This document shows positions 1 through 19,042 of a DNA stretch of 64,000 bases, in pieces. The notes beneath the pieces were generated by a model, which was not told the origin of the DNA, made no database searches, and saw only the letters and a list, made by a program, of their open reading frames with translations. The stretch is from Candidatus Babeliales bacterium (GTDB taxonomy: Bacteria > Babelota > Babeliae > Babelales > RVW-14), in the NCBI GenBank assembly GCA_019749895.1, contig JAIEPG010000005.1:6884-70883 (forward strand), in the 5' to 3' direction. Position 1 is the first letter of the stretch. Every line of letters begins with the position of its first letter. The position numbers were made by a program, and so were the translations under genes.

Positions 1-35
1 GTAAGAACTGTGGAAAGTAAACGTAAAAACTTCAT
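1..35 (-). CDS. 5' end (11 codons) of a leader-bearing gene that runs off the left edge
   Basis: Reverse strand reads GGAGGTTATC-ATG AAG TTT TTA CGT = MKFLRLLSTVL. Same RBS/start architecture (GGAGGTTAT-ATG, MKF...) as the genes starting at 4531 and 5806. Confidence 0.3.
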   Translation of the reverse strand, partial: MKFLRLLSTVL

Positions 36-348
36 GATAACCTCCTGCCGCGCCGTAGTTTTAACGGAAGCGGGTAACGTAGACGGGCGATTATTTTATA
101 ACTTTATAACCTCTTTTTGGCTTTATTGAGCCTTAGTTAATATTCTAACAGAATTTTAAAATATGTAAGATAAAGAAGGAAAATAATGGCTATTTTTAGC
201 GTTTTTTGAGGGTTTTCACCTAAACGGCCGTGCCCGCAAGCCTAGTCAAGCGGCCAACTCTTCTCGAAACTGCATTCTTGGTGTAGCCTAGACCGAGACT
301 GAAAGACCGCAAAATAGTCCCTTTTAACCCAAATTTAGGAGTTTTAAA

Positions 349-1098
349 ATGTCATTATTTTATTACTGCATTGCTATTGTCATTTTTGGCGCGGGAGTGC
401 TTTTTTACTTCCACCGAACGCAAGAAACCAGCATGCAAAAAACAGCTACACGGGCGGCCCGCACCTTTGTCGAGCAAAGGTATCCGTATTCATTGCCAGC
501 CCTGCCGTATGCCTACAACGCACTTGAGCCGCACATTGACGAAGCAACTATGAATATCCACCACACCAAACACCATCAAGCGTACATCAACAGCTTGAAC
601 GAAGCGCTTGAAAAGCACCCTGAATTTCAAAACAAATCACTAGTTGATTTGTTAGCACACTTTGAAAGCTTGCCAGACAGTTTAAAAAAAGCGGTTGAAA
701 ATCATGGTGGTGGGCATGCAAACCATTCAATGTTCTGGCTGATTATGTCTCCACAGGGCGGCGGACAACCAGACGGCAAACTGGCACAAGCAATTAACGA
801 CGCATTTGGTTCATTTGAAGATTTTAAAAAATTGTTTATTGAAGCCGCAAAGACACGTTTTGGGAGCGGTTGGGCATGGCTATGCGTTGACGGTAACAAC
901 AATTTGGTGGTCACTTCAAGCGCTAACCAAGACAACCCAATCATGGAAGGTTTAATTCCCGTGCTTGGCTTGGACGTGTGGGAACATGCGTATTATTTGA
1001 AATATCAAAATAAGCGCATAGACTACGTTAACACGTGGTGGAATGTGATCAACTGGCAACAAGTTGCTGAGTATTATGCAAAGGCAATGCAAAAGTAA
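349..1098 (+). CDS. sodA: Mn-type (Fe/Mn family) superoxide dismutase with extra N-terminal hydrophobic segment
   Basis: Motifs HHTKHHQAYINSLN, GGGHANHSMFW, SANQDNP, DVWEHAYYLKYQN. AGGAG lies 7 nt upstream of ATG 349. The first ~25 aa (LFYYCIAIVIFGAGVLFYF) are a hydrophobic helix preceding the usual LPALPY start of the SOD fold. Confidence 0.9.
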   Translation: MSLFYYCIAIVIFGAGVLFYFHRTQETSMQKTATRAARTFVEQRYPYSLPALPYAYNALEPHIDEATMNIHHTKHHQAYINSLNEALEKHPEFQNKSLVDLLAHFESLPDSLKKAVENHGGGHANHSMFWLIMSPQGGGQPDGKLAQAINDAFGSFEDFKKLFIEAAKTRFGSGWAWLCVDGNNNLVVTSSANQDNPIMEGLIPVLGLDVWEHAYYLKYQNKRIDYVNTWWNVINWQQVAEYYAKAMQK

Positions 1099-1993
1099 AG
1101 CACGTCACAAAATAACCGTGCGATCTTAAAGCAGTAGCAACGTTGTGTTGCTGCTGCTTATTTTTTGTCAGTGCAACTACCACACCACCAGCACCAGCGC
1201 CAGTAATTTTGGCACCAAGCGCGCCAGCGCCAAGTGTTAAAGAAATAATATTTTCAAGATGAGCATTAGAAACACCAAGCTGGCGTAAAAACTGTTGGTT
1301 CATATTCATGCACATGCCCAACGCAGTTAGATTGCCTTGCTGGCAGGCACGCAGACCAAGCGTAAAAAGCTTAGAATAATCACGACACAAACGCTCAAAA
1401 TTGTGTGGTTGCGTTGCGCGAAAATTTTGAACAGCTGCAACCACGGTGCTTGTTTGACTGCGCATGCCGCTGTCGATCAACACGCAGTGCAGCGTTGTAC
1501 CGGGCACCACACTCGTCCGCCCTTTTTCTTTTTCAAAAACAAAAGAGCCCCCAAACGTTGCCGCAGCATTATCAATACCGCTCGGGTTACCGTGTGCTAG
1601 TTTTTCAGCCTGCAGTGCCGCATTGTTAACGGCGCACTCGTCAAGATTAAGATTGAGTGTGTCATTAAGTGCACGCACCGTTGCCACAGCAGCAGCAGCG
1701 CTGGAGCCAACACCGCCCGACATAACCACTAAATCGCCAGAAAGCGTAACTTCAAGCTGGTAGGAAATTTTAAAAAAAGTAGTGAGTGCTGTTAAGAAAC
1801 GAGTGAGTTGCTCTGGCGAGCAGACAAGCGACGGGTGCGCAAACACGCGTTGGTCAACGACATATGAAGGTTGCGAAATAATTTTTGCATGCGCCCGCGT
1901 TTGTTGCGGTAGCGCAAACACCAGCGCCGGCAGGCCGTACACCACAAAGTGCTCGCCAAACACAATAATTTTACCGTACCCGCCTTGCGTCAT
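1049..1993 (-). CDS. mvk: mevalonate kinase (GHMP kinase)
   Basis: N-terminal GKIIVFGEHFVVYGLPAL, GHMP motif MSGGVGSSAAAAVATVRAL, KITGAGAGGVVVAL. ATGA overlap with the upstream DUF35 gene. Confidence 0.85.
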   Translation of the reverse strand: MTQGGYGKIIVFGEHFVVYGLPALVFALPQQTRAHAKIISQPSYVVDQRVFAHPSLVCSPEQLTRFLTALTTFFKISYQLEVTLSGDLVVMSGGVGSSAAAAVATVRALNDTLNLNLDECAVNNAALQAEKLAHGNPSGIDNAAATFGGSFVFEKEKGRTSVVPGTTLHCVLIDSGMRSQTSTVVAAVQNFRATQPHNFERLCRDYSKLFTLGLRACQQGNLTALGMCMNMNQQFLRQLGVSNAHLENIISLTLGAGALGAKITGAGAGGVVVALTKNKQQQHNVATALRSHGYFVTCFTFALPLHNTQQLVAS

Positions 1994-2394
1994 GCACGAG
2001 ACTCCGGCACAAATTTAAGGCCGTAATGAATAATCCCGTTGGCACCTGAAACATAATATTTGCGCAGCGCCGCAACCAAATTCATACCAACGGTTAACTC
2101 TTCAAAATCAACATCGGCCAGTTGCGTCATAATGCGTGGGCCGTCGACCAGCTGCACCAACCCAACGCAGTACGGCTCATACATTTTGTGCTCACGCGGT
2201 GCGTGCGTTACCTGCGTAAATGACAACAGCGTTGCTTGATGGCGCAAAAGGATTGGTTGAAACGTGATACTGCCGCACGGGCAAAGATATTTTTTTAAAT
2301 AAAATTTTTGACTGCACACCGTGCATTGCGTGCCTTCAAGGCGGTAGCGCTGTGGGTACAAGCGCCAATTAATAATTGGACTGTTGCTGAACAT
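1990..2394 (-). CDS. DUF35-type Zn-ribbon/OB-fold protein (thiolase/HMG-CoA synthase scaffold type)
   Basis: Cys cluster CTVCSQKFYLKKYLCPCGS followed by an OB-like segment YCVGLVQLVDGPRIMTQLADVDFEELTVGMNL. Start trimmed to ATG 2394 (MFSNSPI...) because the longer ORF runs into the GC-rich repeat. Confidence 0.7.
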   Translation of the reverse strand: MFSNSPIINWRLYPQRYRLEGTQCTVCSQKFYLKKYLCPCGSITFQPILLRHQATLLSFTQVTHAPREHKMYEPYCVGLVQLVDGPRIMTQLADVDFEELTVGMNLVAALRKYYVSGANGIIHYGLKFVPESRA

Positions 2395-2400
2395 GACAAG

Positions 2401-2655
2401 CCCTTTCGTGTTGACCCTTCGACCCTTCGAGACATCCGACTTCGCTCTTCGAGCTACGACGGATTCCTCAGGGAGAACGGGAAAAACCAACACTTTTACT
2501 CTTAACACAGAACTTATAGCAAAAAAAACGAGTCTCAAAAAAATAAAAAGATCTTACTCTCATCCGTTCGCCCTGAGGAGCCTGACGAAGCTTTCTTGTC
2601 CTTCGTAGCCACGTAGGGCGTAGAAGGATAGCGTAGACAGGCGTCTCGAAGGGCA
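2401..2655. repeat. Two inverted copies of the dispersed GC-rich repeat family, flanking an AT-rich spacer
   Basis: 2401-2484 (cccttcgagac...ttcgctcttcgagctacgacgg...cctcagggagaacgg) and 2561-2655 (ccgttcgccctgagg...gtctcgaaggg) can pair with each other. Related copies occur at 5816, 36601, 40451, 40611 and 61945. Confidence 0.6.
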
Positions 2656-2730
2656 AGTATACCACGCACACACAAAAAAAAGAGCCCATGAAATAATTCA
2701 TGAGCTCTTACAATAAACTAAAAAATTATA

Positions 2731-3183
2731 CTAAAAAAGTAAGCACGAAGAACCGTACGTTACTACGCCCTCTTCATCAGAATCATTGTAATTGATATCT
2801 GTCGTATCATAAAGAGGATGATTAGGATCTGAGCTAAGTTCATAGGGAACCCGATTTTTTCTTTCTTCTTGTTCTTTTCTTCGTTTTTCATGAAAATCAC
2901 GTTGTATTCGTCGTAAATTTGCAATATACGCACGATTCTTTTGTAAAAATTTCCAATGAGCTTCCAACTCAGCCAATTTCTTATCAAACAACTCTCCAGA
3001 CTTTTTTACGTCTTCGGCTGAAACAGGAAACTGTTCAGACTCTAACGATTCTTGTGAATCACAATCAGGAGAAGGCGTACGATCTTGATGACGTGAGATT
3101 GAACTACTCGCAGCAGCAAACAATGAAGTCGCTGATGCAACAAAACTAACCGAAAGTAAAAGTATCAATAAGTGCTTTTTCAT
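2731..3183 (-). CDS. secreted coiled-coil protein ending in CaaX-like CLLF
   Basis: GGAGGAATT RBS then leader MKKHLLILLLSVSFVASATSLFAAASSS. Charged helical middle (KKLAELEAHWKFLQKNRAYIANLRRIQRDFHEKRRKEQEERK). C-terminus is ...GSSCLLF-stop. The longer ORF to 3393 was rejected. Confidence 0.6.
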   Translation of the reverse strand: MKKHLLILLLSVSFVASATSLFAAASSSISRHQDRTPSPDCDSQESLESEQFPVSAEDVKKSGELFDKKLAELEAHWKFLQKNRAYIANLRRIQRDFHEKRRKEQEERKNRVPYELSSDPNHPLYDTTDINYNDSDEEGVVTYGSSCLLF

Positions 3184-3199
3184 AATTCCTCCAAAAATA

Positions 3200-4531
3200 T
3201 TATTCGCGATTACCGCGTTTACGCACAACTCGTAGATCTTTTGTTGCATCATCGCTATCGCTATCACTCTCAGGGCTTGCCTGAATAAATGGCGAAAGTA
3301 ATGGCGCACTTGTTGGCACCGATGGTAAAAGCATGGTAAATAAATCAAGACGAAAACTTTCTTCACTTTGCATATCAACACCATCATAAGCACAAGAGCG
3401 ATTACGCTTTGAAGTTGAAGACGAAGAACTTGACGAAGTCGGTAAACTTAAGGTTTCAGACTCAACCATGATAGTTTTTGGCTCATGATCTATATCACAG
3501 TGCCGCTTGATTAATGAGTCTGTGCTTTCTTGTCCACGCTTATTTTTACTTGAAAAAACAAGCTCATGCTCAACCGGAGCCCCTTCAACATAACCAACAT
3601 ACAAAGAAAGTCCCTTACACGTTTGCCGAATTGCCAAATGTAACTCATCAAAAACTTCTTTCCATGAATCATGCAATACCAACTCGGTCACTCCAGCTTG
3701 TAATGCCTGTTCAATCTTTATGCGCAGCACAAGATGCCTAAACGAAATATTTCTAGGAATTACAAGAGCAGATCCATCACCAAACCGAATAACAACCTCT
3801 CCTGTACAAGCATCTTCAAGAACACTTTGAGCACTTTTTGCGTGTGGAGCAGGAAATTCACGAACCAGGTCGCCACGTTTCGACCAAAAACTAATAACCT
3901 TGCCGTCTATTGCGATGGTGTAAACCCCCTCAGGACGACAAAGAATCTGATCTCTAATGTGACTGCTTGGTTTGATTGTTACAATTTCACCACCGTCTAA
4001 TGATATTTGCGTTGTTTTATCAGTAGCTCTTCCAATACTATAATTCTTACTTGGTAAAAAATTGGAGCAATAATACTCTTGAAAATAAGAATGGCTAAAC
4101 CTAGGATGCAATTTCACAAAACAAGACATGAGCGCGCCATGCATACGTTCTAATGCGTCAAAATTTTTATCCAACGATATTGATGAAACTATACATTCGG
4201 CAAATTTTTGCTTTTGCTCACCCGTCATGGTATTTATTTTTTTTCCTAAAAATATCATAACATCATGCAAACCAGGCTTTGTACTTGGAACTCTTTCTTG
4301 AAACATTTCTTGAAGAAAAGCAACAAGTCTCCCGGCAAATGCATCGTGCTCGCTTGGAATAAGAGTCAAGCAAGAAAACAATGATACAAAGTCATCGTTC
4401 TCATCATGCAACGATGAACGTGCGCTTGAGCTTGACGAACTTGAACTCGAAGAGCTTGAACTTGATGCACCAAAAAGTGGCGCACCAAAAGCAAGCGAAA
4501 GCAATAATAAGCTGTAATTAAAAAATTTCAT
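3200..4531 (-). CDS. secreted Ser-rich hypothetical protein (MKFFNY family)
   Basis: Leader MKFFNYSLLLLSLAFGAPLFGA followed by 14 consecutive Ser. A second poly-Ser tract lies near the C-terminus. Its C-terminal domain is related to the 6117-6665 product (LVLRIKIEQALQAGVTELVLHDSW vs LLILKLEQLKRENHTEVTLHETW). Confidence 0.7.
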   Translation of the reverse strand: MKFFNYSLLLLSLAFGAPLFGASSSSSSSSSSSSSSARSSLHDENDDFVSLFSCLTLIPSEHDAFAGRLVAFLQEMFQERVPSTKPGLHDVMIFLGKKINTMTGEQKQKFAECIVSSISLDKNFDALERMHGALMSCFVKLHPRFSHSYFQEYYCSNFLPSKNYSIGRATDKTTQISLDGGEIVTIKPSSHIRDQILCRPEGVYTIAIDGKVISFWSKRGDLVREFPAPHAKSAQSVLEDACTGEVVIRFGDGSALVIPRNISFRHLVLRIKIEQALQAGVTELVLHDSWKEVFDELHLAIRQTCKGLSLYVGYVEGAPVEHELVFSSKNKRGQESTDSLIKRHCDIDHEPKTIMVESETLSLPTSSSSSSSTSKRNRSCAYDGVDMQSEESFRLDLFTMLLPSVPTSAPLLSPFIQASPESDSDSDDATKDLRVVRKRGNRE

Positions 4532-4555
4532 AATAACCTCTTTTGATCAATTTTT

Positions 4556-5806
4556 TTATCTACGCGTTGTTCGCTTAGTTGATGAAGAGCTTGAGTTTCT
4601 TCCTGTAGAATCACTCGACTGTGTACGCTTTGCAACAGGAGTTGTTCTTGTTGTATCACTATCACTATTCTCATCATCACTACTTTCATAATCATAACTT
4701 CTTGACGCGTGTGAAGAAGATGATGATGACGAAGAAGAAGACGAAGAGAATGATGATGATTGTAAAACACTTGAAGAACTTGGACTCGACGTTTGCGGCT
4801 CATTTAGAAAACTCATGAAATCAGCAAATTCCTCTGGATAATCATGAACGGGTCTACGGCGTCGCTTTTCGTTTCCTTGTTCTTCTTCTCGCTCAAAAAG
4901 TACTTCATGCTTACGCTCAGAAGGTTCTGTTGGCGCATGAAAGGTAAGAACAGGAGTGTGCGGCCCAGATAAACCAAGAAATAATCTTTCTAAATGTTGA
5001 AAAACATTGCGACTGTATTCATCGCCACAATCGGCGTGTGATGTGCGGCTGTGATGCCGCTTAGTGCTGCTGTCTTGTTCAAGTCGTTTCTCGCCATACT
5101 CGCAGTCATGCACATCAAGACGCTTGCTCGTTTGAATTGTTGGCGAATATTTTGGCGAATACATAATAAGTGCGGTCGATGTTACTGATGGAATAATCTG
5201 AGCTCCATAACAAACATTGCGATATTTCAAAAGATTGGTTTGAGCACGCGAAGGTATCAAAACCCCATCTTGATAATGAGAAAATGTTTGATTTTTAAAA
5301 AATTGCGCTGCTACTTGAAAAATGTTTTCATGCGAATGATAACCCATAATCGCACCCAAAGCAGACTGTGGCACGGTAGCCACATCAATCTTCCTGGTAG
5401 CAATCTTACCGTCTGGTGCAATGCCATAACCGCAAAGAACTTTTGTATCCACATCAAGAACTAATACAGCAACAACATTATCGCGATCAGCTGCACACGA
5501 TTGAGCAACCTCATGGTAAGAACCGCTAAGAATACTGGCATCGCGAAAAATAACCACATAAATTTCACGACGCGCAACACTCAACGAACTTGATAACGAA
5601 GCTGAAACAGGCACTACTGGTGGCTGATACACAATGAGTTGGCGCGATGAAGAGTCAGACTGCTTTTCACTATCGTCCAAACAAAAAGCATCAAAAAACG
5701 TCGCTAATTCTTCAATTTCTCGATCTTTCGATGAACTTGCCGCACCAAAAAGTGATGCACTCAGCCCCAAAGAAAGTACTAATAAACCGTAGTTAAAAAA
5801 CTTCAT
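4556..5806 (-). CDS. secreted Ser-rich hypothetical protein (MKFFNY family)
   Basis: GGAGGTTATT-ATG, leader MKFFNYGLLVLSLGLSASLFGAASSS. Ser-rich C-terminal region (SSSFSSSSSSSSSSSS) ending in a basic tail. Confidence 0.7.
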   Translation of the reverse strand: MKFFNYGLLVLSLGLSASLFGAASSSKDREIEELATFFDAFCLDDSEKQSDSSSRQLIVYQPPVVPVSASLSSSLSVARREIYVVIFRDASILSGSYHEVAQSCAADRDNVVAVLVLDVDTKVLCGYGIAPDGKIATRKIDVATVPQSALGAIMGYHSHENIFQVAAQFFKNQTFSHYQDGVLIPSRAQTNLLKYRNVCYGAQIIPSVTSTALIMYSPKYSPTIQTSKRLDVHDCEYGEKRLEQDSSTKRHHSRTSHADCGDEYSRNVFQHLERLFLGLSGPHTPVLTFHAPTEPSERKHEVLFEREEEQGNEKRRRRPVHDYPEEFADFMSFLNEPQTSSPSSSSVLQSSSFSSSSSSSSSSSSHASRSYDYESSDDENSDSDTTRTTPVAKRTQSSDSTGRNSSSSSTKRTTRR

Positions 5807-5815
5807 AATAACCTC

Positions 5816-5900
5816 CATCCGCCTTCGCTCTGCAAGCTACGGCGCGATTATGCTTAAAAGGGTGGATGCCGCGTCAAAGTTGTTAACGTCGACGGGCATA
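5816..5900. repeat. copy of the dispersed GC-rich repeat family
   Basis: catccgccttcgctctgcaagctacggcgcg...aacgtcgacgggc resembles 2441-2465 and the segment at 41-100 (aacgtagacgggc). Confidence 0.45.
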
Positions 5901-6116
5901 ATCAATAATATATTTTCAGATATAAAATTAATTATACCGAAAAATTAAAAAATGGCAACCGCCATCCGCAAGGCTTATTTTGGCACTATTAACCAAAATT
6001 TCCGTCTTTTTATAGTAAAAAAACGGGTAAAAAGATGAATTATCGGCTTTTAAAAAATTATAATGGGCATACTTTTTTAAAATATGCTCATTTTTAGTGA
6101 ATAAAGCGCTATTTTT

Positions 6117-6665
6117 TTAAAGAATATGACAGAAACCACTATCAACTGTGGCACCACTGTCCAAGATATGTTCTTGGCCATAAGAAAACTTTATCTTAAT
6201 ATCATTAAAATAATTCTTCAATACAGCACTCAAGCGGCGATACGTAACAACCCAGGTTTCGTGCAACGTTACTTCAGTATGGTTCTCTCTCTTCAATTGC
6301 TCAAGCTTTAAAATAAGCAATGCTTCTTGAAAAGGCCGGCCGCTCAAGCAAATTTCATAGGTTTCAGATTCAGATAGTTGGATGGGAAGGTGGTAGGGAA
6401 CACCAACATCTTCGCCAAAATAGCCACAACCCTTCATGATATGATAGGGAAAAGGCCCTTGTTCGTCTTTTGCTATACACACCTGCTCACTCAATGCTTT
6501 GTCAACATCAAAGGCTAAAAGCTTTTGCATGTCTGGGTTATCTCTATGCGGACTCAAAAAAACAGGTCTAAGACCACGAATATGAGAATAATCATCTATC
6601 CCACCAAACACCGGCACGCTAAAAGCAAACGCAAATAAGACAAAAACAGACCTGAACAAGCTCAT
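6117..6665 (-). CDS. secreted hypothetical protein ending in CaaX-like CHIL
   Basis: Leader MSLFRSVFVLFAFAFSVPVFGG. Domain shared with the C-terminal half of the 3200-4531 product. C-terminus is ...DSGFCHIL-stop. Confidence 0.65.
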   Translation of the reverse strand: MSLFRSVFVLFAFAFSVPVFGGIDDYSHIRGLRPVFLSPHRDNPDMQKLLAFDVDKALSEQVCIAKDEQGPFPYHIMKGCGYFGEDVGVPYHLPIQLSESETYEICLSGRPFQEALLILKLEQLKRENHTEVTLHETWVVTYRRLSAVLKNYFNDIKIKFSYGQEHILDSGATVDSGFCHIL

Positions 6666-6769
6666 AAAAAACCCTCACCATAAAAAATAATTTTAAAAAA
6701 ACACCAAAATCGGTGGGATATATTATTGCGCTTTAAAAAAAAATGACAATAAAAAAAAGCAAAAAATTT

Positions 6770-7921
6770 TCAAACCGCAAGAATGTGCACAGCAACCGTT
6801 GAACCAATACCACCCATATTGTGTGCCAGAGCAGTGCGGGCATTGGCTACTTGGCGCTGAGCGGCCGCACCGCGTAGCTGCCGAACCAGCTCAATAACTT
6901 GTGCCAAACCAGTAGCCCCAACCGGATGTCCCTGGGCCTTAAGCCCGCCAGACATGTTGACCGGCAAAGCGCCGCCCAGCGTTGTTATGCCTTGCGCGGT
7001 AGCACGTGCAGCTTGGCCAGGCTGGAAAAAGCCCAAATCTTCAAGCGCCATAAGCTCGGCCATAGTAAAGGCATCGTGCACTTCAACAAGATTGATATCG
7101 CGCGGCCCCACGCCTGCTTGCTGGTACGCGCGCTGCGCGGCTGTTTTGGTAGCAGAAAAAGAAGTAAGTGCGGTTCGCTCGCCAAACAATAACGAATCAG
7201 TTGCCACACCAGAGCCAACAATAAAGACCGGCTTTATGCCAGCTCGCTGGGCAAATTCCGGCGTTGAAAGGATCAGCGATGCAGCGCCATCGGTAATGGG
7301 CGCACAGTCAAACAAACCCAACGGGTCGGCAACCATGGGCGCATTGAGCGCCGTTTCTAAGGTAATTTCTTTGGTAAAATGAGCGTTGGGGTTGAGTGCG
7401 CTATGCTTATGATTTTTAACGCTCACATGCGCAAGGTCGCTGCGCGTAATGCCATGCTCATTAAAATATAAGCGCGTAATCAGCGCAAAAAGACTGGGAA
7501 AGGTAAGACCCACAAAATGGTCGGCCTCTTGCAAGCTCGCACCAATCATGCTGGTTGCCAGCACGCCGGCATCAACGTCGGTCAACTTTTCTACACCGCT
7601 GACCAGCACCACTTCAGCTGTGCCCGCTTGAATAAGCGCCATGCCCTGCTGCAACGCCAGCGAACCGGAAGCACAGGCACCCTCAACGCGCACACTGGGC
7701 ACATTAAGATTTAACACGTGTGCGGCCAACGCACCAAGATGCAACTGCCCTGCGGCACTTTCGCCAGACATGTTGCCCACCACCAACGCATTAATTTGGT
7801 GTGCCGCTAAACCGGCATCGCTCAACGCTCCCAACTGACTATGTGCCAGCAAATCGCTGAGCGACTGGTGCCACAACTCACCAAATTTTGTTTGGCCAAT
7901 GCCAATAACGGCAACTTTCAT
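6770..7921 (-). CDS. acetyl-CoA acetyltransferase (thiolase, archaeal/SCP-x-like type)
   Basis: MKVAVIGIGQTKFGE N-terminus, active-site Cys context VEGACASGSLAL, C-terminal NMSGGLKAQGHPVGATG and AHNMGG. ATGA overlap with the HMG-CoA synthase gene. Confidence 0.85.
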   Translation of the reverse strand: MKVAVIGIGQTKFGELWHQSLSDLLAHSQLGALSDAGLAAHQINALVVGNMSGESAAGQLHLGALAAHVLNLNVPSVRVEGACASGSLALQQGMALIQAGTAEVVLVSGVEKLTDVDAGVLATSMIGASLQEADHFVGLTFPSLFALITRLYFNEHGITRSDLAHVSVKNHKHSALNPNAHFTKEITLETALNAPMVADPLGLFDCAPITDGAASLILSTPEFAQRAGIKPVFIVGSGVATDSLLFGERTALTSFSATKTAAQRAYQQAGVGPRDINLVEVHDAFTMAELMALEDLGFFQPGQAARATAQGITTLGGALPVNMSGGLKAQGHPVGATGLAQVIELVRQLRGAAAQRQVANARTALAHNMGGIGSTVAVHILAV

Positions 7922-8970
7922 GCATCACCGTGCAAAGCTTTGAGATGCTGCAAATACGTTGCATACGAAACATATTTTTTTTCGGCCAGATACGCACGCG
8001 TTTGACGCGCTTTGTTTTGTACCACCACCAACTGCTCAGTTGTTTTAATCACAAACGCATCACAACCACTACCGCTGCCATAACTTACTAGTACAATTGT
8101 TTGATGTGGCTTAGCACTGTCGAGCACCGCGGTCAAACCCAGTAATGAATTGGCACTGTACGAATTTCCCAGCGTTTCAACCAACAAGCCACTCGCCAGT
8201 TGCTCACGAGAAAAACCAAGTTGACGTCCAACCATGAGCGGGAACTTGCCGTTGGGCTGATGAAAAATAACATGATCAACGTCACGTGGTTGCAAATTGT
8301 GCTGGGCAAGTAAGGCTTGTGTTGCTGCGACAACGTGCGCAAAATAGGCAGGCTGCGCGGTAAAGCGCCCCTCGTGCTCGGGGTAAGCGGCCAACGAGCG
8401 TCGCCAAAAATCCGGGGTATCGGAACTGTACGAAAGCGTGCGCTCAACCACCGCACAGGCATTTGCTACATCGTGTGAAACAATAAATGCAGCAGCGCCG
8501 GCACCGGCAGCATATTCCAAAATATCGCCCGACTTTGCTTGTGCGGTATCACTACCCACTGCCAACGCACATGAGGCCATTCCGCTTTTCACCACGCCCA
8601 AGGCTGCTTGCAGCGCAGCGGTACCACCTTTGCAGGCAAATTCAAAATCGGCAGCCAGGTAGTTGTTACCAATCCCTAAAACTTCTCCCAAAATGGTTGC
8701 TGAGGGCTTAACGGCATACGGATGGCTCTCGCTACCCACATAAACTGCTTGCAATGCCGGCGCTAAACACGCCGCACGCGTTAACGCATTTTTTGACGCA
8801 ACAACCGCCATAGTTAGCGCATCTTCGTCTGGCCCTGGTAACGATTTTTCACTCAGGCCAAGAGATTCTGCAATGCGCACAGGATCATCGCCACACGCAC
8901 GGGCCAACTCTTGAACAGCAATGCGATAGCGCGGAATGTAGGCACCATAGCCAATAATACCAGCAATCAT
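7918..8970 (-). CDS. HMG-CoA synthase, short (~350 aa) archaeal-like form
   Basis: GIIGYGAYIPRYRI start typical of the short archaeal-type enzymes. Catalytic Cys context DFEFACKGGTAAL. HQPNGKFP and SYGSGSG motifs. Confidence 0.85.
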   Translation of the reverse strand: MIAGIIGYGAYIPRYRIAVQELARACGDDPVRIAESLGLSEKSLPGPDEDALTMAVVASKNALTRAACLAPALQAVYVGSESHPYAVKPSATILGEVLGIGNNYLAADFEFACKGGTAALQAALGVVKSGMASCALAVGSDTAQAKSGDILEYAAGAGAAAFIVSHDVANACAVVERTLSYSSDTPDFWRRSLAAYPEHEGRFTAQPAYFAHVVAATQALLAQHNLQPRDVDHVIFHQPNGKFPLMVGRQLGFSREQLASGLLVETLGNSYSANSLLGLTAVLDSAKPHQTIVLVSYGSGSGCDAFVIKTTEQLVVVQNKARQTRAYLAEKKYVSYATYLQHLKALHGDA

Positions 8971-10235
8971 TATTGAAACCCTTCCGCCAAGAGCGCACGC
9001 GCACGCGCAACTGAAATATTTTTTTCAAGCACCATACAACTGGCCACAGCCTCAATTGCAGCACCGGTGGCGCCGGCAGTGATAGCAATATTTTGACTGT
9101 GCAGCCGCATATGGCCGTACTGAATGCCTTCGGTTACCAGCGCTCGCAGCGCAGCAAAATTTTGTGCCAAGCCCACCGCACCCACAACACCTGCCAACTC
9201 TTGCGCCGTTGCAACGCCAAGTATTTTAAGTGCTAAGCAGGCAGTTGGATGACTTTTGGTAATTCCGCCAACGGTTGCCACTGCCAGAGGCATTTCAACA
9301 TGCCCCACCAAATCACCCGCTTCATTTTTTTCATACCAACTGAGCGGCTGATAACTGCCCGTGCGAGCGGCATAACTATGCACACCCGCTTCGGCAGCAC
9401 GAGTATCGTTACCGGTTGCCAAGCACACAGCAACAACGCCGTTCATAATACCTTTGTTGTGCGTTGCCGCACGATAACTGTCGGCCGCTGCAAAGGCACT
9501 GGCTTGTACCATGGCATCGATGGTTGGCTGACCCAGCATTTCTTGCTTCCAGGTTGCAGCAACACGCACCACGCGCTCGGGAGAAAAATTGGAAACTATG
9601 CACAACCGCACCTGCCCGCCACACATTTTTTGGATCAGCGGGGCTATACGCTCGGCCATGGTATTTACAATGTTGGCGCCCATGGCATTGCCCACATTTA
9701 CACTCAATTTGATTGAGAGGCACAATTCGTTATTGATCAAGAGCTCGTGACCCACCACATCTACCGCCCCTCCGCCATGCTCAAGCAAGACTGGGTCGGC
9801 TTGATTGGCGTAGCTTAAAAGTTCGTTTTTGTGCGCATTAAGAGCCTGCAAGGCTTTGTAACAGTCGGGCACGCTTGCCAACAAAATTTGGCCGGTCATA
9901 AGCGGAAAACCGCCATGCGCAGTAAAGCCTCCGGCAACACGAGCAAGCTTAGCGCCGTACGAAGCAGCCGCAACCACACTAGGCTCTTCGGTAACCATGG
10001 GAATAAGATAATCATTGCCATTAACCATAAAATTGGTCGCTATGCTCAAGGGAAATGACATGACCGAAACAACATTTTCACTCATTTTTTGGGCATGAGA
10101 GATGGCCAAAGAAGCGCCAGACTGCAAGGCCTGAACCTCTTGATTAGTAAGATCGGCAAAGGCTTGAACATGCTGCAAGCGCTCTTCAACTGATTTTTTA
10201 TAAAAAGCGGGAAATCTACTGCACCTGTTTTTCAT
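8970..10235 (-). CDS. mvaA: HMG-CoA reductase, class II
   Basis: ~420 aa soluble form. SENVVSVMSFPLSIATNF, MVTEEPSVVAAAS (class II signature), VGNAMGANIVNTMAE, ATVGGITKSHP. ATG at 10235 preferred over TTG at 10250. Confidence 0.9.
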   Translation of the reverse strand: MKNRCSRFPAFYKKSVEERLQHVQAFADLTNQEVQALQSGASLAISHAQKMSENVVSVMSFPLSIATNFMVNGNDYLIPMVTEEPSVVAAASYGAKLARVAGGFTAHGGFPLMTGQILLASVPDCYKALQALNAHKNELLSYANQADPVLLEHGGGAVDVVGHELLINNELCLSIKLSVNVGNAMGANIVNTMAERIAPLIQKMCGGQVRLCIVSNFSPERVVRVAATWKQEMLGQPTIDAMVQASAFAAADSYRAATHNKGIMNGVVAVCLATGNDTRAAEAGVHSYAARTGSYQPLSWYEKNEAGDLVGHVEMPLAVATVGGITKSHPTACLALKILGVATAQELAGVVGAVGLAQNFAALRALVTEGIQYGHMRLHSQNIAITAGATGAAIEAVASCMVLEKNISVARARALLAEGFQ

Positions 10236-10459
10236 GCAACCACCACGCAAGCAAGCTTTGTTAGCTTGTTTTATGCCATTTAAGAAAAAGAATATCGTGA
10301 AAGGTAATGGATATCTTGCGCTCTGTCAATTAGTTACTACTACCGATACAAACCAAGCAAACCACACGCTTTCAATTTCTTTTATCAAAATCATTGATAA
10401 TAATATTTACTATTTGATATTTTAATAAGTAGTAGTATTAAAATAAAGAGGAGAGGCCC

Positions 10460-12016
10460 ATGAAGTCATTATGCTCATTAGTCAAATCGGTTACAACGCT
10501 TTTTGCTGTTGTAGCTCTATTTGTTGGTTCTGCCTTGTCGGCAGCATCAACAAATCCGCTTAATATTCCTACCAACTTTGCAAGCCAAGCCAATATCGAC
10601 GACCTTGCCACTGGCTATTTTAAGCAAATCAGCGGCATGTCGACCGTCGAAAACAAAATTCAAGCGCTCTCAACATTAATCGACCGCTCAGATCGCGCAA
10701 CGTTTAACGCCTCCACCCAAACGGCTTTTGGCAAACTCGTTGAAGACGCTTACAAAATGGCCACTTCAGAAAGTAGCCAACTATTGCTCTTGCCAGTACT
10801 TTCACAAGCACAGTCAAGCACGTTATTGGCACCAGTACAACAGAATTATGTCGCACAAAATATGATTTTTGGCGTTCTAAAAAACTTAATTACTACCGCT
10901 GCTCAAAAATCGACCTATCAAGATCGCTTAAATAGCCTTTCTGCCATTACCAACCCAAACAATTTTGTAACCAGACGCGGCTTGCGCATAACCCTTACGC
11001 AAGGCGTTCGCGATCTTTACTACCGAACATTGGTACAGTTGTACGAACAACGCACCAACCAAAGCAACCAAGCACAAGCACAACTGCGCGATATCATGCG
11101 CACAGCACTCAAAGGCAGCGTTCCTTTGCTCGACAACCGCCGCCGCCAATACGTAAGCCAACAGCTGTTACCAAAATTAGACGCTTTTAAAGAATTTAAA
11201 AAAGAAAGCACAACCACCAGCACAAGCGGAGCAACGGGCACTGGAGCAACAACTGGCACAACCACCGGTGGAACAACCGCAGGTACTGACAGCTCTGGCG
11301 TTCAAACAGGAGCTGGAAGCGCTACTGGCACTGGCACCTCGGGCACCGGCACAACTGCTGGCAGCCAACTGAGTGCTGGCAATGTTGCAGGCACGGGTAG
11401 TACCGACAGCCAATCAGGAACAGGTAGTGTTTCAGTTCCTGGTATTCCAGATGCTGGCACCGGCACAACCACAGGCACAACTGCAAGCTCAGGTAGCAAA
11501 ACAACGCCAGGTACCGGCAGCCTTGACGCTCAATTAGCAACAGCAACAGGAACAGGTACCTCGACAGCCGATACCAGTAACACGGTATTTAATGACGACA
11601 GAATTAAACGCTTATTAGACAGTATTGGTAAACAACCGCTCATCGAAAATCGCTTACGCTTTATGTCCAAGCTAACTGCAAAATCAGGCTCCGGAACCTT
11701 TAAGCCAGAAACACAACAAGCATACGCCGATCTCTTGGTAGAAGTAGCAAAACAAAGCAGAGAAGTTGCTACGCTTGCTCAAGACCTGCTCAAAGCAGCA
11801 AGCACCTCACCGTTACTCTCAACCAAACAACAAAAGTACGTAACATCAACCATGATACCACAGCAAACTCAACCACTTGCAACAGTAGAAACAACAATAC
11901 CTGGAGCAAAAAAACAAAAGGTCGCCAAAGTAAGAAAAGAACGTCGCGTTCAAAAGAGCGGTAAGCGCCAAGGAATAAAAGCAGGCAAAACCAAAAGAGC
12001 TGCTCAAAATCAGTAA
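10460..12016 (+). CDS. secreted protein with three copies of a novel ~80-aa module, a Thr/Gly-rich linker and a basic tail
   Basis: GAGGAG RBS, leader MKSLCSLVKSVTTLFAVVALFVGSALSAAS. Modules end in LLAPVQQNYVAQNMI, LLDNRRRQYVSQQLLP and LLSTKQQKYVTSTMIP. The T/G linker is roughly nt 11207-11585. C-terminal tail is KKQKVAKVRKERRVQKSGKRQGIKAGKTKR. Confidence 0.7.
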   Translation: MKSLCSLVKSVTTLFAVVALFVGSALSAASTNPLNIPTNFASQANIDDLATGYFKQISGMSTVENKIQALSTLIDRSDRATFNASTQTAFGKLVEDAYKMATSESSQLLLLPVLSQAQSSTLLAPVQQNYVAQNMIFGVLKNLITTAAQKSTYQDRLNSLSAITNPNNFVTRRGLRITLTQGVRDLYYRTLVQLYEQRTNQSNQAQAQLRDIMRTALKGSVPLLDNRRRQYVSQQLLPKLDAFKEFKKESTTTSTSGATGTGATTGTTTGGTTAGTDSSGVQTGAGSATGTGTSGTGTTAGSQLSAGNVAGTGSTDSQSGTGSVSVPGIPDAGTGTTTGTTASSGSKTTPGTGSLDAQLATATGTGTSTADTSNTVFNDDRIKRLLDSIGKQPLIENRLRFMSKLTAKSGSGTFKPETQQAYADLLVEVAKQSREVATLAQDLLKAASTSPLLSTKQQKYVTSTMIPQQTQPLATVETTIPGAKKQKVAKVRKERRVQKSGKRQGIKAGKTKRAAQNQ

Positions 12017-12030
12017 ATAGCTATTTATAA

Positions 12031-12064
12031 AGCCCGCTGCAGTTACTAGCTGCAGCGGGCTTTG
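12031..12064 (+). terminator. rho-independent terminator
   Basis: Perfect stem agcccgctgcag / ctgcagcgggct around a 6-nt loop, followed by ttt. Confidence 0.7.
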
Positions 12065-12139
12065 TTCATTGTAACTCTCAAAAGACCACCACCCCAAAAA
12101 TCTCTCTTTTTAACTAAAATCACCATTATTTATATCAAA

Positions 12140-12167
12140 TTGACAAATTGGCAATATTTGTTACTAT
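12140..12167 (+). promoter_or_regulatory. candidate sigma70-type promoter for the first array-A gene
   Basis: TTGACA (12140-12145), 16-nt spacer, TACTAT (12162-12167), ~70 nt upstream of ATG 12240. Confidence 0.35.
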
Positions 12168-12239
12168 TGGTATAGAAAGAGCGAAAAAGCTTCTTTGACC
12201 GATTTTGCAGTTTTATGCATAAAAATGAAAGGTTATATC

Positions 12240-13325
12240 ATGAAAAAATTTATGAACGCATTTATTATTGCCCTCGCACTTACCGCCAACGCACTGCCAG
12301 CGGCAGAACCAACGCTTGACGAGCTGCATGCTGCAATAGAACATAACAATATTCCCGTTCTTGATACTTTGCTTCAACAAAATCCAAACATTTTTGAGCT
12401 AGACATTGAAAAAGGAACACCGCTGCACTACGCAGTTAAAAAAAATAATCAAGAAGCTGTGCAAGCACTGCTCAACTACGCCACCCAAAAAAATCTGCTC
12501 TTCCATATTCTTGATAGTAGGGACTGCGATAACCTGACTCCTCTTGAATTTGCAGACCGCCTTGGTCGTACGGGCTGCGCAACCCTCATGCGTAAGTACC
12601 AAAACATGATCGCCTTTGACTATGACGAAGCTGGCAACGCACACCCACTGCCAACAACACCTGTACGCCAACCAGCTTCAAGAGATAATCAGCTCATCGT
12701 GTCCTACAGCACTCTAAACAAACCAATTAAATTGCGCACGGCCATAATCACCAAAAACGTCACCCAAGCTGAGGATCTTTTGACAGAGAACAAAGACCTC
12801 CTTTTAGACCAAGATAGCAATAAAGATACGCTTCTTCATGGCGCTGTCCTTGTGGATAGTTTTGAGTGTGCACAAGTAATACTTGCTCATGCACAACAGC
12901 AAAATGTCTTGAATGCAATCCTCAATGCTCAAAATGCACAGGGACAAACAGCTCTGCATATGGCTGTTATGAAAAAAACAGTGATGTTGATTGCAGACGA
13001 CGAAACGGTCAAGCCAACGAGCCACATGATCGAAGATTCGCGCTTTGCCCAAGAAATTATTGATTATGCCCAAACAAGCGGCACGCTCTCTTTGATTATC
13101 AACATGAGCGATAACAAAAACGAAACGCCACTCCACCTGGCGGCAAAGGCAAAAAATGACGTGTGCATTCGGCTTCTTCTTAGCCAAGGAGCTGACACCC
13201 AAGCCCGTAACTCAATGGGACTGAGTCCCGTTGATCTTCTGCGCAAACGTGAAGATGCCGATCTGATAACCCTTTTCAAAACACAACAGAAAAAACAAAA
13301 ACAGGAAAAGTGCGTAATTTGCTAA
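12240..13325 (+). CDS. secreted ankyrin-repeat protein A1, polybasic + CaaX (CVIC) C-terminus
   Basis: Leader MKKFMNAFIIALALTANALPAA. ANK units GTPLHYAVKKNNQEAVQALL and ETPLHLAAKAKNDVCIRLLLSQGAD. Ends KKQKQEKCVIC-stop. Confidence 0.85.
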   Translation: MKKFMNAFIIALALTANALPAAEPTLDELHAAIEHNNIPVLDTLLQQNPNIFELDIEKGTPLHYAVKKNNQEAVQALLNYATQKNLLFHILDSRDCDNLTPLEFADRLGRTGCATLMRKYQNMIAFDYDEAGNAHPLPTTPVRQPASRDNQLIVSYSTLNKPIKLRTAIITKNVTQAEDLLTENKDLLLDQDSNKDTLLHGAVLVDSFECAQVILAHAQQQNVLNAILNAQNAQGQTALHMAVMKKTVMLIADDETVKPTSHMIEDSRFAQEIIDYAQTSGTLSLIINMSDNKNETPLHLAAKAKNDVCIRLLLSQGADTQARNSMGLSPVDLLRKREDADLITLFKTQQKKQKQEKCVIC

Positions 13326-13361
13326 AGAAAAATAAAAATTAAGAACCAAAAAGGTTATATC

Positions 13362-14276
13362 ATGAAAAAATTTATGAGCCCACTAATTATCGCCCTTGCT
13401 CTTAACGCCAACGCACTGCCTGCAGCATCTAGTTACGGAGAAATCCCTGAAGTAGAATTAAGCAGAGCAATAAAATTAAACGATTTAGCTTCAATAACCT
13501 TCTGGATAAAAACAGCAAACTTACGTACACAAGATAGTGATGGCAATACACCACTTCACCTTGCCATTATTCATAACAACAAACAAGCAACAGCTGGTAT
13601 TATTTTTTCAGCACAAGAACAAAATATTCTTCCTCAAATCTTAAACATAGAGAATAACAAGGGAACTACACCGCTACAACTCGCACAACGTTCTAGCAAT
13701 AAAGAGCACCTAAAATTTATAGCCTCTATTGCCCCCGAAGAAGCACAATTTGTAAAACCCAAACAAAAAACTTTTCTTTTATTCAGGACAATAGGAACGA
13801 ACAACATTGATGAACTGAAACAATTACTGAGACAAGACAACCTCAAGCCAGCACTTCATTTTGCAACCAACAACAACAAACCTGAGTGCTTACATACAAT
13901 CTTGAGCTATGCACAGGAAAAAAACATGCTCTTAGAAACGCTCAGAACAACCAACGAACGCGGCCAAACAGCACTACATGTAGCAGCAATAAATGGCTTT
14001 ACGTTATGTATGCAAGAAATAGTTATGTTAGTACATAGTGATCCTGCAATACTGAATCTACGTGATAATAAAAACCAAACACCTCTTCATTTAGCTGCAC
14101 AACATGATCACGAAGAATGTGTTCGCATACTACTCGCCGCAGGCGCTGATACTGAATTTTCAGACACTCATGGCAATACAGCAGCTCAATGTGCTCGACA
14201 AAATAGACATGAAGACATTGCTATGATCATTGAGAAAAACGAAAAAAACAAAAAAGAAAAATGCGTCATTTGTTAA
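13362..14276 (+). CDS. secreted ankyrin-repeat protein A2, polybasic + CaaX (CVIC)
   Basis: Leader MKKFMSPLIIALALNANALPAA. GNTPLHLAIIHNN, QTALHVAAINGF, QTPLHLAAQHDHEECVRILLAAGAD. Ends KNKKEKCVIC-stop. Confidence 0.85.
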   Translation: MKKFMSPLIIALALNANALPAASSYGEIPEVELSRAIKLNDLASITFWIKTANLRTQDSDGNTPLHLAIIHNNKQATAGIIFSAQEQNILPQILNIENNKGTTPLQLAQRSSNKEHLKFIASIAPEEAQFVKPKQKTFLLFRTIGTNNIDELKQLLRQDNLKPALHFATNNNKPECLHTILSYAQEKNMLLETLRTTNERGQTALHVAAINGFTLCMQEIVMLVHSDPAILNLRDNKNQTPLHLAAQHDHEECVRILLAAGADTEFSDTHGNTAAQCARQNRHEDIAMIIEKNEKNKKEKCVIC

Positions 14277-14305
14277 TGAACGTTTATTTAAAAATAGGTT
14301 ATATC

Positions 14306-14848
14306 ATGAAAAAATTTATGAGCCCACTAGTTATCGCCCTTACACTTAGCACTAACACACTGCCTGCAGCATCAAGCTCTGCGGCAAGCGTACAGCCAGT
14401 AGCTGAGAGATATAGTAAACGTCTCTTTCAAGCTGTCGCAAACAACCAAATGTTCGAAGTATCTAAACTCATCAAAAAGGGCGCCAATCTTCTCGCTCAA
14501 AACGAAGAAGGTTTTACTGTTCTTTATCTAGCAGTGCTTCATAACAACATCGAATGCTTAAACACCATTATTCTTTATGCTCGAGAAAAGAATATCCTTA
14601 ACGAAGTACTTAATGCCCAAACAAGAGAATGGCGCCAAACTCCTCTTCATGCCGCCGCAGCAATGGATCGTAAATCGTGTGTACGTGCGCTCCTTGAAGC
14701 TGGTGCTAACACAACGCTTAAAAATGGAATGGGAAGAACAGCAGCAGAACACGGTCGGCACAACGATTATACAGAACTTGCTATGATTATTGAAAATTAT
14801 GGAAAAGAACCGAAGCAAGAAAAAAACAAAAAATGTATCATTAGTTAA
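14306..14848 (+). CDS. secreted ankyrin-repeat protein A3, polybasic + CaaX (CIIS)
   Basis: Leader MKKFMSPLVIALTLSTNTLPAA. FTVLYLAVLHNNIECL, QTPLHAAAAMDRKSCVRALLEAGAN. Ends KQEKNKKCIIS-stop. Confidence 0.85.
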   Translation: MKKFMSPLVIALTLSTNTLPAASSSAASVQPVAERYSKRLFQAVANNQMFEVSKLIKKGANLLAQNEEGFTVLYLAVLHNNIECLNTIILYAREKNILNEVLNAQTREWRQTPLHAAAAMDRKSCVRALLEAGANTTLKNGMGRTAAEHGRHNDYTELAMIIENYGKEPKQEKNKKCIIS

Positions 14849-14876
14849 AGAGATCATTTTACTCGCTAATAAAAAA

Positions 14877-14905
14877 GGGGCAGGAAATTCCTGCTCCTTT
14901 TTCTT
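14877..14905 (+). terminator. rho-independent terminator after A3
   Basis: ggggcagg-aaattc-cctgctcc stem-loop (8 bp, one G-U) followed by tttttc. Confidence 0.65.
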
Positions 14906-14929
14906 TGTCTCAATTTTTGGCAAGCTGGG
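14903..14929 (+). promoter_or_regulatory. copy 1 of the array-A intergenic promoter-like cassette
   Basis: ctttgtctcaatttttggcaagctggg aligns with the consensus TTTGCATAAATTTTTGGCATGMTACA seen at 15469, 16086, 19043 and 21273. Confidence 0.3.
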
Positions 14930-14977
14930 AAAAAACATAACAGATTTTTTCATGTCAAAAATTTTAGGAAAAAGAAT

Positions 14978-15442: not shown

Positions 15443-15468
15443 CCTTTTCATTTTCAGCATTCTCTTTT

Positions 15469-15495
15469 CTTATGCAACCGTTTTTTGGCATACTG
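15469..15495 (+). promoter_or_regulatory. copy 2 of the promoter-like cassette
   Basis: cttatgcaaccgttttttggcatactg. Confidence 0.3.
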
Positions 15496-15552
15496 AAAAA
15501 AATTTTCTGATGTCAAAAAATAGTAGATAGTGATTTAATGGAGATAGTTATC

Positions 15553-16020: not shown

Positions 16021-16085
16021 TTTTTTTGCTTTCTCTTTTTTTTGATCCCATCAATACACGCAATAGTTACTATGTGCTCTTTTTT

Positions 16086-16150
16086 GTTTGCATAATTTTT
16101 TGGCATGATACAATGTGTCACTAAATATCACTAAAAAATTGTTTTTTTAG
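16086..16150 (+). promoter_or_regulatory. copy 3 of the promoter-like cassette plus conserved leader box
   Basis: TTTGCA-16nt-TGATACAAT (extended -10 like) followed by cactaaaaaattgttttt, a box repeated at 19524 and 21306. Confidence 0.45.
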
Positions 16151-16183
16151 TTCTTAACAACCCAAACACCAGGAGAGTATGTC

Positions 16184-19034: not shown

Positions 19035-19042
19035 GTATTTTT

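Follow-up and report, generated by a model that had tools for sequence, protein, structure and literature searches.

The window analysed here is a stretch of 64,000 nt from an uncultured Candidatus Babeliales bacterium (Dependentiae) that parasitises protists, and ORF coordinates are given in window numbering throughout. Its minus strand carries the five genes of an archaeal-type mevalonate (MVA) cluster, in which the thiolase and DUF35 genes are separated by a gap of 4,375 nt holding four ORFs on the operon strand (182, 416, 443 and 150 aa) and their putative terminators. The five MVA genes are the following:

8970-10235, minus strand: HMGR (HMG-CoA reductase), which opens the MVA cluster (Pfam PF00368, E 6e-96)
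7918-8970, minus strand: HMGCS, archaeal-type HMG-CoA synthase (NCBIfam TIGR00748 equivalog, 421 bits against a cutoff of 353)
6770-7921, minus strand: archaeal-type acetoacetyl-CoA thiolase (PF22691, Thiolase_C_1, E 5e-47; PF00108, Thiolase_N, E 2e-28)
1990-2394, minus strand: DUF35, OB-fold and zinc-ribbon protein (Pfam PF01796, E 1e-14)
1049-1993, minus strand: MVK (mevalonate kinase), with GHMP kinase N and C domains (Pfam)

HMGCS also matches PRK04262 (471 bits), and all four cysteines of the CxxC...CxC ribbon can be read in the DUF35 sequence. The start of HMGR at 10235 (MKNRCSRF) agrees with that of its orthologue in the sister genome described below, to which it is 95% identical. An initial annotation, made from the letters alone, had described an MVA operon split by a low-GC insert of about 4.4 kb, with HMGR, HMGCS and thiolase tightly coupled on one side and DUF35 and MVK on the other. 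Both descriptions proved correct. The four ORFs of the insert share one strand and its GC content is the lowest in the window; base 8970 is common to HMGR and HMGCS, 4 nt (7918-7921) belong to both HMGCS and thiolase, and another 4 nt (1990-1993) to both DUF35 and MVK. The interruption is not an assembly artefact: Logan contigs from three sequencing runs cover 9603-6278, 7993-6735 and 6776-4685 at 100% identity, and the junction between ORF150 and DUF35 is independently backed by the sister genome.

Dependentiae lack the methylerythritol phosphate pathway, and MVA is their sole isoprenoid route (PMC6107057). Thiolase, HMGCS and DUF35 are presented as a channeling complex in the part of PMC12960953 that cites its ref. 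14. Because the pathway is the sole route and these proteins form a physical complex, the order of their genes is among the most stable across archaea and several bacterial phyla. The contiguity of thiolase, HMGCS and DUF35 that serves as a criterion of the archaeal-type MVA operon is lost here, with all three subunits present.

Two close relatives were compared with the window: the sister metagenome-assembled genome GCA_019746485.1 (L003; 44-kb contig), whose thiolase is 92% identical, and positions 433870-455027 of CP064957.1 (L004; 1.45 Mb), whose thiolase is 81% identical. Both of these nearest matches are named Candidatus Babeliales. All remaining thiolase matches are at most 59% identical and mix Babeliales/Dependentiae with DPANN and other archaea, including methanogens; the genome is bacterial (Candidatus Babeliales) though the operon is of archaeal/DPANN type. 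The four inserted genes, with the features recognised in each of them, are:

6117-6665, minus strand: ORF182, orphan with signal-peptide-like N-terminus; C-terminus CHIL, kept in L003; ratio of nonsynonymous to synonymous substitution rates (dN/dS) 0.52
4556-5806, minus strand: ORF416, Ser-rich orphan with signal-peptide-like N-terminus (MKFFNY...); 74% identical to L003; dN/dS 0.39
3200-4531, minus strand: ORF443, orphan with signal-peptide-like N-terminus; core weakly WD40-like
2731-3183, minus strand: ORF150, orphan with signal-peptide-like N-terminus; C-terminus CLLF (CSLL in L003); dN/dS 0.25

A comparison of the four ORFs with Pfam, NCBIfam and PHROG gave no family above threshold. ORF182 and ORF443, the two ORFs covered by a search of 5.8 billion proteins, have their L003 orthologue as sole homologue there; the self match of ORF182 at NCBI is K2W90_04460, from Candidatus Babeliales bacterium. 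The core of ORF443, searched with HMMER against 1.84 billion representatives, gave weak matches to WD40-type repeats (E 6e-6 to 1e-4) plus one spurious repeat protein. AlphaFold2 models built from two-sequence alignments reached a mean pLDDT of 39 for ORF443 and 47.5 for ORF182, too poor for a fold search. The two proteins have in common an alpha/beta module of about 50 residues (hhalign E 9e-5), within which the secondary-structure elements follow one order in both low-confidence models. ORF416 and ORF443 share a different part, limited to the ribosome-binding site and the first 27 residues (an 84-nt repeat with 79% identity; hhalign E 7e-8); this 5' module looks duplicated, and the block looks in part locally made.

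Between the window and L003, dN/dS is 0.25-0.52 for the inserted genes against 0.05-0.13 for the MVA genes (DUF35 0.12), which indicates that the four ORFs are real genes under relaxed purifying selection. The synonymous distances (dS) are 0.18-0.49 for the inserted genes and 0.47-0.81 for the MVA genes (0.65-0.81 for HMGR, HMGCS, thiolase and MVK). In the same comparison (window 1049-12016 against L003), a neighbouring gene for a 518-aa protein has a dS of 0.23. The initial annotation had called the four products leader-bearing. By a crude hydrophobicity rule all four do have signal-peptide-like N-termini, but 30 of 50 ORFs tested across the window pass this rule as well. The hydrophobic region of all four closes with LFG/A or LFA/A. 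Taken together, the inserted genes are most likely of the bacterium's own kind, fast-evolving and coding for secreted, effector-like proteins.

Gene order in the relatives places the interruption within the history of the group. L003 has the identical interruption, and each of the four genes has its orthologue there (amino-acid identity 74-81%). In L004 the outer frame is that of the window (superoxide dismutase gene on the plus strand, MVK and DUF35 on the minus strand, then a 232-aa gene and MazG on the plus strand and acetyl-CoA synthetase on the minus strand), the four genes are missing, and the segment with thiolase, HMGCS, HMGR, a member of the 518-aa family and ankyrin genes is inverted. 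Reversing this inversion on paper brings thiolase next to DUF35, which is the window order minus the insert. In L004, DUF35 and HMGR are now separated by an ankyrin gene and paralogues of the 518-aa family, which show no homology to the four inserted genes. One of the L004 breakpoints lies exactly in the thiolase/DUF35 spacer and the other inside the ankyrin array (compared with window 1-25300). The MVK gene and the Fe/Mn superoxide dismutase gene (349-1098, plus strand) overlap convergently at their 3' ends by 50 nt (1049-1098), an arrangement kept in both L003 and L004.

In more distant Babeliales, HMGR-HMGCS-thiolase-DUF35-MVK are contiguous in L005/L006, L089, L090 and L091, and HMGR-HMGCS-thiolase-DUF35 in L007/L008. 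The thiolase-DUF35 spacer measures 3-80 nt in five such Babeliales-like contig sets, in all of which the operon is uninterrupted. A wider sample comprised 80 loci of GTDB species representatives among the matches listed (archaea and other phyla, no Babeliales, thiolase at most 51% identical). In roughly 65 of these 80 archaeal and bacterial loci, no more than about 100 nt separate thiolase from the start of DUF35. The initial annotation had stated that in archaea the DUF35 gene usually adjoins thiolase and HMGCS. Comparable gaps (3-4.7 kb) occur in only two of the 80 loci, both from Micrarchaeota (L037 and L067). Upstream of HMGR, the window contains two further features:

10460-23390, plus strand: second accessory block between HMGR and acetyl-CoA synthetase, with the 518-aa secreted protein, about 10 ankyrin genes, a 227-aa ORF and MazG
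23391-25274, minus strand: acetyl-CoA synthetase, upstream of HMGR beyond the 13-kb block

Acetyl-CoA synthetase directly precedes HMGR in L090 (3466-6891) and L091 (1812-5084). The window thus keeps the ancestral order and orientation on the minus strand, with two accessory wedges of about 13 kb and 4.4 kb. The identity of all five window MVA genes declines in parallel across the relatives, which fits one inherited operon. These comparisons indicate that the interruption is derived and lineage-specific, and the most economical account of them would be insertion, or growth in place, in the ancestor of the window species and L003, with the L004 lineage undergoing its inversion independently. 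In the initial annotation, relatives that share the interruption and have conserved orthologues had been named as speaking against insertion. L003 is formally such a relative but, because it is a sister species (thiolase 92% identical), it dates the event and does not refute an insertion.

The insert also stands out in composition, and the discontinuity that the initial annotation expected in a GC and codon-usage profile was found. The 4,375 nt have a GC content of 39.4%, the minimum in the window for that length (window average 43.4%); 0.8% of 4.4-kb sliding windows are equally low, every one of them overlapping the insert. The adjoining block from HMGR to thiolase is the window maximum, at 52.1%. 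GC at third codon positions (GC3) is 0.25, 0.29, 0.28 and 0.38 in the inserted genes and 0.43-0.53 in the MVA genes, with a mean of 0.40 (standard deviation 0.06) over 63 window ORFs. High GC in the conserved enzymes contributes to the step no less than the insert does. In each Babeliales-like locus examined the MVA genes track local GC, a few points above it (29-35% within a locus of 29% GC), and accessory genes of L004 have a GC3 of 0.26-0.30. For both reasons the step separates conserved enzymes from accessory genes and is by itself no foreign signature. We also considered the MVA genes as the foreign part, given their high GC, and rejected the idea, as in all Babeliales loci they follow local GC.

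Promoter and terminator calls come from a consensus scan combined with conservation in L003, and folds were scored against shuffled sequences. The signals in and around the block are:

6666-6769, minus strand: thiolase-ORF182 spacer, with promoter-like TTGTCA-16-AATAAT (6749..6722), weak hairpin and T-run (6715..6702) and putative ribosome-binding site GGTGAGGG
6051-6092, minus strand: terminator-like hairpin and U-run 3' of ORF182 (-12.7 kcal/mol, z -3.2)
6026..6002, minus strand: second hairpin after ORF182
5931-5958, minus strand: promoter-like TTGCCA-16-TATAAT before ORF416, 11 of 12 positions matching, the best promoter-like site in 1-10600
2672-2709, minus strand: strong predicted intrinsic terminator 3' of ORF150, with a 13-bp stem (2709..2680) and eight T (-18.7 kcal/mol, z -5.4)
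2656-2664, minus strand: candidate extended -10 box for DUF35-MVK, TGGTATACT (TG-n-TATACT); L003 has TGTTATACT

The terminator-like stem after ORF182 is kept in L003 (GGGCATAT/ATATGCCC), and the ORF150 terminator is conserved there with a single change that retains pairing as a G-U wobble. The thiolase-ORF182 spacer is 97% identical to L003. From the 5958..5931 site to the ORF416 start identity is about 96%, and upstream of that site conservation is far lower. These two stretches, the spacer and the ORF416 leader (5807-5935), have counterparts in L003 at 11153-11257 and about 11990-12114. Since their 96-97% identity exceeds that of neighbouring synonymous sites (50-84% between the window and L003), both are under constraint. 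The fold of the ORF416 leader is no more stable than those of shuffled sequences (z -1.4).

By these signals the block appears to form two autonomous transcription units. Its own promoter-like sites and the strong, conserved terminator before DUF35 make co-transcription of the block with DUF35-MVK unlikely, and the suggestion of the initial annotation that the inserted genes might be co-transcribed with the operon is not upheld; read-through from thiolase into ORF182 may occur. Before DUF35, the window (2672-2664), L003 (15170-15195) and L004 (2600-2650) each have a terminator hairpin starting with GAGCT, a T-run and, 12-13 nt further, TATACT. The genes upstream of this arrangement are unrelated among the three genomes, and the similarity of the terminators is weak.

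GC-rich repeats had been seen in the initial annotation as the boundaries of the insert. Copies were located at 40-95, 2405-2655 (two inverted units), 5816-5900, 36610-36715, 40450-40530 and 40615-40700. The first three of these concern the left end of the window and the block:

1-95, minus strand: 5' end of a gene for a large secreted protein (MKFLRLL..., ATG at 34), with repeat modules in its leader; the L003 orthologue exceeds 1,100 aa
2405-2655, no strand assigned: composite GC-rich element of two inverted repeat units around an AT-rich centre (RNA fold z -6.1)
5816-5900, minus strand: GC-rich repeat copy (54% GC) in the ORF416 5' leader, ending at the GGAGG ribosome-binding site

Four matches to the motif GCCYGTCKACGYTA were located, against 0.08 expected: 75-88, 2629-2642, 5884-5897 and 57852; the last (57852-57865) lies inside a coding region with one mismatch, and we treated it as chance and not as a repeat copy. 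A 25-nt degenerate pattern is found at 2433-2457 and 5816-5840 (0 expected by chance), within a 29-nt direct repeat (2433-2461 and 5816-5844, 86% identical) that brackets ORF416 to ORF150, three of the four genes. The observation of a related gene start with the same repeat at the left edge was thus right, as the MKFLRLL gene and its leader carry the same modules. The bounding role was right in half: a copy does lie at 2405-2655, probably as the 5' leader of DUF35-MVK, but the 5816-5900 copy is internal, between ORF182 and ORF416, some 870 nt away from the stop codon of thiolase. The repeats thus do not delimit the insert, and the family is dispersed. A rearranged version of the 2405-2655 composite is present in L003; L004 has none at this site and no repeat copy on either side of its breakpoint.

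The repeat core CTCAGGGNGAACGG occurs in L003 and L004 and is absent from the more distant Babeliales loci and from the 80 other loci. A search of 1-12000 against Rfam gave nothing at threshold and one sub-threshold chance match (SNORD20, E 0.69). The repeats can be described as a clade-specific, dispersed intergenic family, mostly in 5' leaders. Repeats of the REP/BIME or MITE type are short, dispersed, intergenic palindromic repeats of bacteria. Like them, the units here are short, GC-rich, intergenic and partly palindromic, an inverted pair folds into a long hairpin (z -6.1), there are several copies per 64 kb, and the family is limited to close relatives. Unlike in MITEs, no target-site duplication or defined termini were recognised, and the copies are heterogeneous, with large indels, and lie mostly in 5' leaders. 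In the region 40450-40900, two copies are flanked on one side by an HU-like gene (about 40045-40320, minus strand) and on the other by apparent tRNA genes (about 40700-40880, minus strand).

A further trait of the inserted genes concerns the C-terminus. Of the 63 window ORFs, nine carry a Cys at position -4, where 1.2 would be expected (P = 2e-6). SecA is among the nine, and its end is no CaaX box; the other eight combine CaaX-like ends (CVIC, CIIS, CLIS, CSLQ, CHIL, CLLF) with signal-peptide-like N-termini. Their coordinates, and those of counterparts in the relatives, are:

2731-3183, 6117-6665 and 43598-44419, minus strand: CaaX-like ORFs, Cys at -4
12195-13325, 13362-14276, 14261-14848, 16961-18319 and 29567-30220, plus strand: CaaX-like ORFs, Cys at -4
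L003 994-5745 and L004 11255-11896: CaaX-like counterparts

Most of the eight are ankyrin proteins, in several of which the Cys follows a polybasic stretch, and the L003 orthologues retain the motif. Within the block, ORF416 and ORF443 have no such end, and CHIL of ORF182 is atypical, with His at the first "a" position. The Legionella effectors AnkB and PelC/PelE carry CaaX boxes and are prenylated by the host (PMC2916131, PMC13081727), and known CaaX effectors are lipidated by host enzymes using host isoprenoids (PMC2916131). As in Legionella, the Cys at -4 is followed by mostly aliphatic residues and conserved in orthologues, and the neighbouring ankyrin proteins are often polybasic before it. 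Unlike the Legionella effectors, these window proteins carry apparent Sec-type signal peptides and not type IV secretion signals. The analogy suggests that the CaaX-ended secreted proteins are candidate host-prenylated effectors; our literature search found no report linking CaaX motifs and Dependentiae.

Signal-peptide ORFans and tandem ankyrin proteins are also features of the repertoires of other Babeliales, Chromulinavorax destructans and Babela massiliensis (PMC6561590, PMC4776705), in keeping with the assignment of the window to Babeliales; in C. destructans signal peptides are carried by 44% of coding sequences, and ORFans are enriched among the secreted proteins (PMC6561590). What differs from these repertoires is that such genes here sit within a conserved metabolic operon and that ORF182 and ORF443 are limited to two genomes. 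In the window, the arrays of ankyrin and secreted-protein genes at 12226-20435 (plus strand) and 42940-53655 (minus strand) contain conserved 5' modules of 60-85 nt (ribosome-binding site and signal peptide), behind which the gene bodies diverge, as those of ORF416 and ORF443 do.

We consider it probable that native accessory genes have split a vertically inherited MVA cluster and that they form two autonomous units, with no mobile element involved. The sequences and comparisons show directly which genes these are, how they are ordered and conserved, their orphan status and selection regime, the sequence signals and the synteny; promoter use, termination, secretion and prenylation are inferred. 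The ancestral order (acetyl-CoA synthetase)-HMGR-HMGCS-thiolase-DUF35-MVK would have been pried apart by the genome's own fast-turnover pool of accessory secreted-protein genes. About 4.4 kb would have filled the thiolase-DUF35 spacer in the common ancestor of the window species and L003, after its split from the CP064957.1 lineage. The first unit would be ORF182 alone, read from the promoter-like site at 6749..6722 to the terminator-like hairpin near 6092..6051. The second would be ORF416-ORF443-ORF150, read from 5958..5931 through the GC-rich repeat leader to the terminator at 2709..2672; the promoter and leader modules of ORF416 recur at the gene for the large secreted protein, at a distance of about 5.8 kb. 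The MVA operon would likewise work as two units, HMGR-HMGCS-thiolase being read from the divergent region upstream of HMGR, and DUF35-MVK from a new start after the terminator (TGGTATACT, 2664..2656) via a structured leader of about 250 nt made of two inverted repeat copies. DUF35, the scaffold of the thiolase/HMGCS complex, would thereby be uncoupled transcriptionally from its partners. The four proteins would most likely be secreted, host-directed effectors, two of which (ending in CHIL and in CLLF/CSLL) would be lipidated by host prenyltransferases.

Several points tell against this scenario. L004 is a single genome between the insert-bearing pair and the distant relatives, and it may have lost the block. 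The same junction is broken in both lineages, which calls either for coincidence or for a junction that is fragile. That dS is lower in the block may reflect a later exchange of the block between lineages, or AT-biased mutation acting on the GC-richer genes, and we detected no paralogues of the inserted gene bodies that would show their source. The promoters, the terminators and the transcript start of DUF35 are deduced from consensus matches and conservation, and the candidate DUF35-MVK promoter (2664..2656) was read from the sequence, not called by the scan tool.

The double break at one junction would be explained at once if the ancestor of the window species, L003 and L004 already had the L004-type inversion and a second inversion, with slightly different end points, later restored the orientation in the lineage of the window and L003, stranding local minus-strand accessory genes in the spacer. 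One ancestral break, exactly at the thiolase/DUF35 junction where L004 has its breakpoint, would then account for both arrangements, and it would follow without further assumption that the stranded genes share the operon strand, as they do. In addition, a similar order of terminator and then TATACT is seen before DUF35 in all three genomes. We nevertheless regard it as unlikely, because the L004 genes that separate DUF35 from HMGR show no homology to the inserted four, the ancestral order and orientation known from L090 and L091 are complete in the window, and the terminator similarity is weak. A foreign, low-GC four-gene cassette, delimited by the repeats and brought in by site-specific or repeat-mediated recombination, strikes us as quite improbable. 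The sharp step in GC and GC3 at both ends, the presence of the block in two genomes only, the 29-nt direct repeat around ORF416-ORF150 and the dS below that of the flanking MVA genes could all be read in its favour. Set against these, Pfam, NCBIfam and PHROG reveal no integrase, transposase, recombinase or phage family among the four ORFs, there is no tRNA in 1-12000, and no target-site duplication was seen, the two ends being alike only in A/T-rich low-complexity sequence. The repeats do not lie at both borders and also occur in unrelated intergenic regions and in L004, ORF182 and ORF443 have no homologue in other organisms, the signal peptides, CaaX ends and leader modules resemble those of neighbouring native genes, and low GC3 is found in other accessory genes too. 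Of the inserted accessory cassette proposed in the initial annotation, the derived accessory block therefore stands, while no recombination gene, repeats at both borders or target-site duplication were found that would mark a mobile element.

Two further possibilities give the location of the block a function. In one, the four genes would be co-regulated with the MVA genes, via read-through or a common GC-rich leader, and their products would act with isoprenoid metabolism, for instance as prenylated effectors. Their common strand, the position kept in two species, the CaaX-like boxes of two products, the related repeat modules in the ORF416 and DUF35 leaders and the 96-97% conservation of the thiolase-ORF182 spacer and ORF416 leader are compatible with it; but CaaX-like ends occur in 8 of the 63 window ORFs, so that two in the block are unremarkable, known CaaX effectors are lipidated with host enzymes and isoprenoids (PMC2916131), a strong terminator stands between the block and DUF35, the ORF416 leader folds no better than chance (z -1.4), and L004 lives without the block. 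We give this possibility hardly any credence. In the other, the GC-rich leader modules of ORF416, the left-edge gene and DUF35-MVK would be a clade-specific cis-regulatory RNA jointly controlling host-directed effectors, some of them with CaaX tags for prenylation by the host, and the second half of the MVA pathway, and the interruption would be a selected rewiring and no neutral erosion of the operon. That the ORF416 leader and the thiolase-ORF182 spacer are 96-97% conserved, at a synonymous identity of about 50-84%, bears on this idea, which we judge very improbable.

If native accessory genes did split the cluster, as we prefer to think, then MVA gene order can be broken while the genes are kept under purifying selection, and a single small clade has seen this happen two times, through a gene block in one case and an inversion in the other. 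The two breaks offer a natural test of how important co-transcription is for assembly of the complex. The effector repertoire would grow through duplicated 5' modules (promoter, leader and signal peptide), wedging even into core operons, and the analysis has also revealed a group of secreted proteins with CaaX ends, possibly lipidated by the host. The understanding of operon evolution is unchanged by the locus, which is a clean, datable and fairly ordinary case of a known process.

Compared with archaeal-type operons for thiolase, HMGCS and DUF35, the cluster in the window has all three subunits under strong purifying selection and, apart from the insert, the HMGCS-thiolase-DUF35 order of about 65 of the 80 loci among the matches listed. 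It differs in that DUF35 lies 4.4 kb from thiolase and behind a strong predicted terminator, where the usual gap is 3-100 nt. Its five-gene order HMGR-HMGCS-thiolase-DUF35-MVK is that of other Babeliales and of Candidatus Iainarchaeum, which belongs to the DPANN archaea: the loci L017 (JAOAJD010000001.1, 7701-12317) and L087 (1683-8118) of the latter have the identical order, and the order common to Iainarchaeum and Babeliales would fit a shared origin, or a transfer, of the whole operon.

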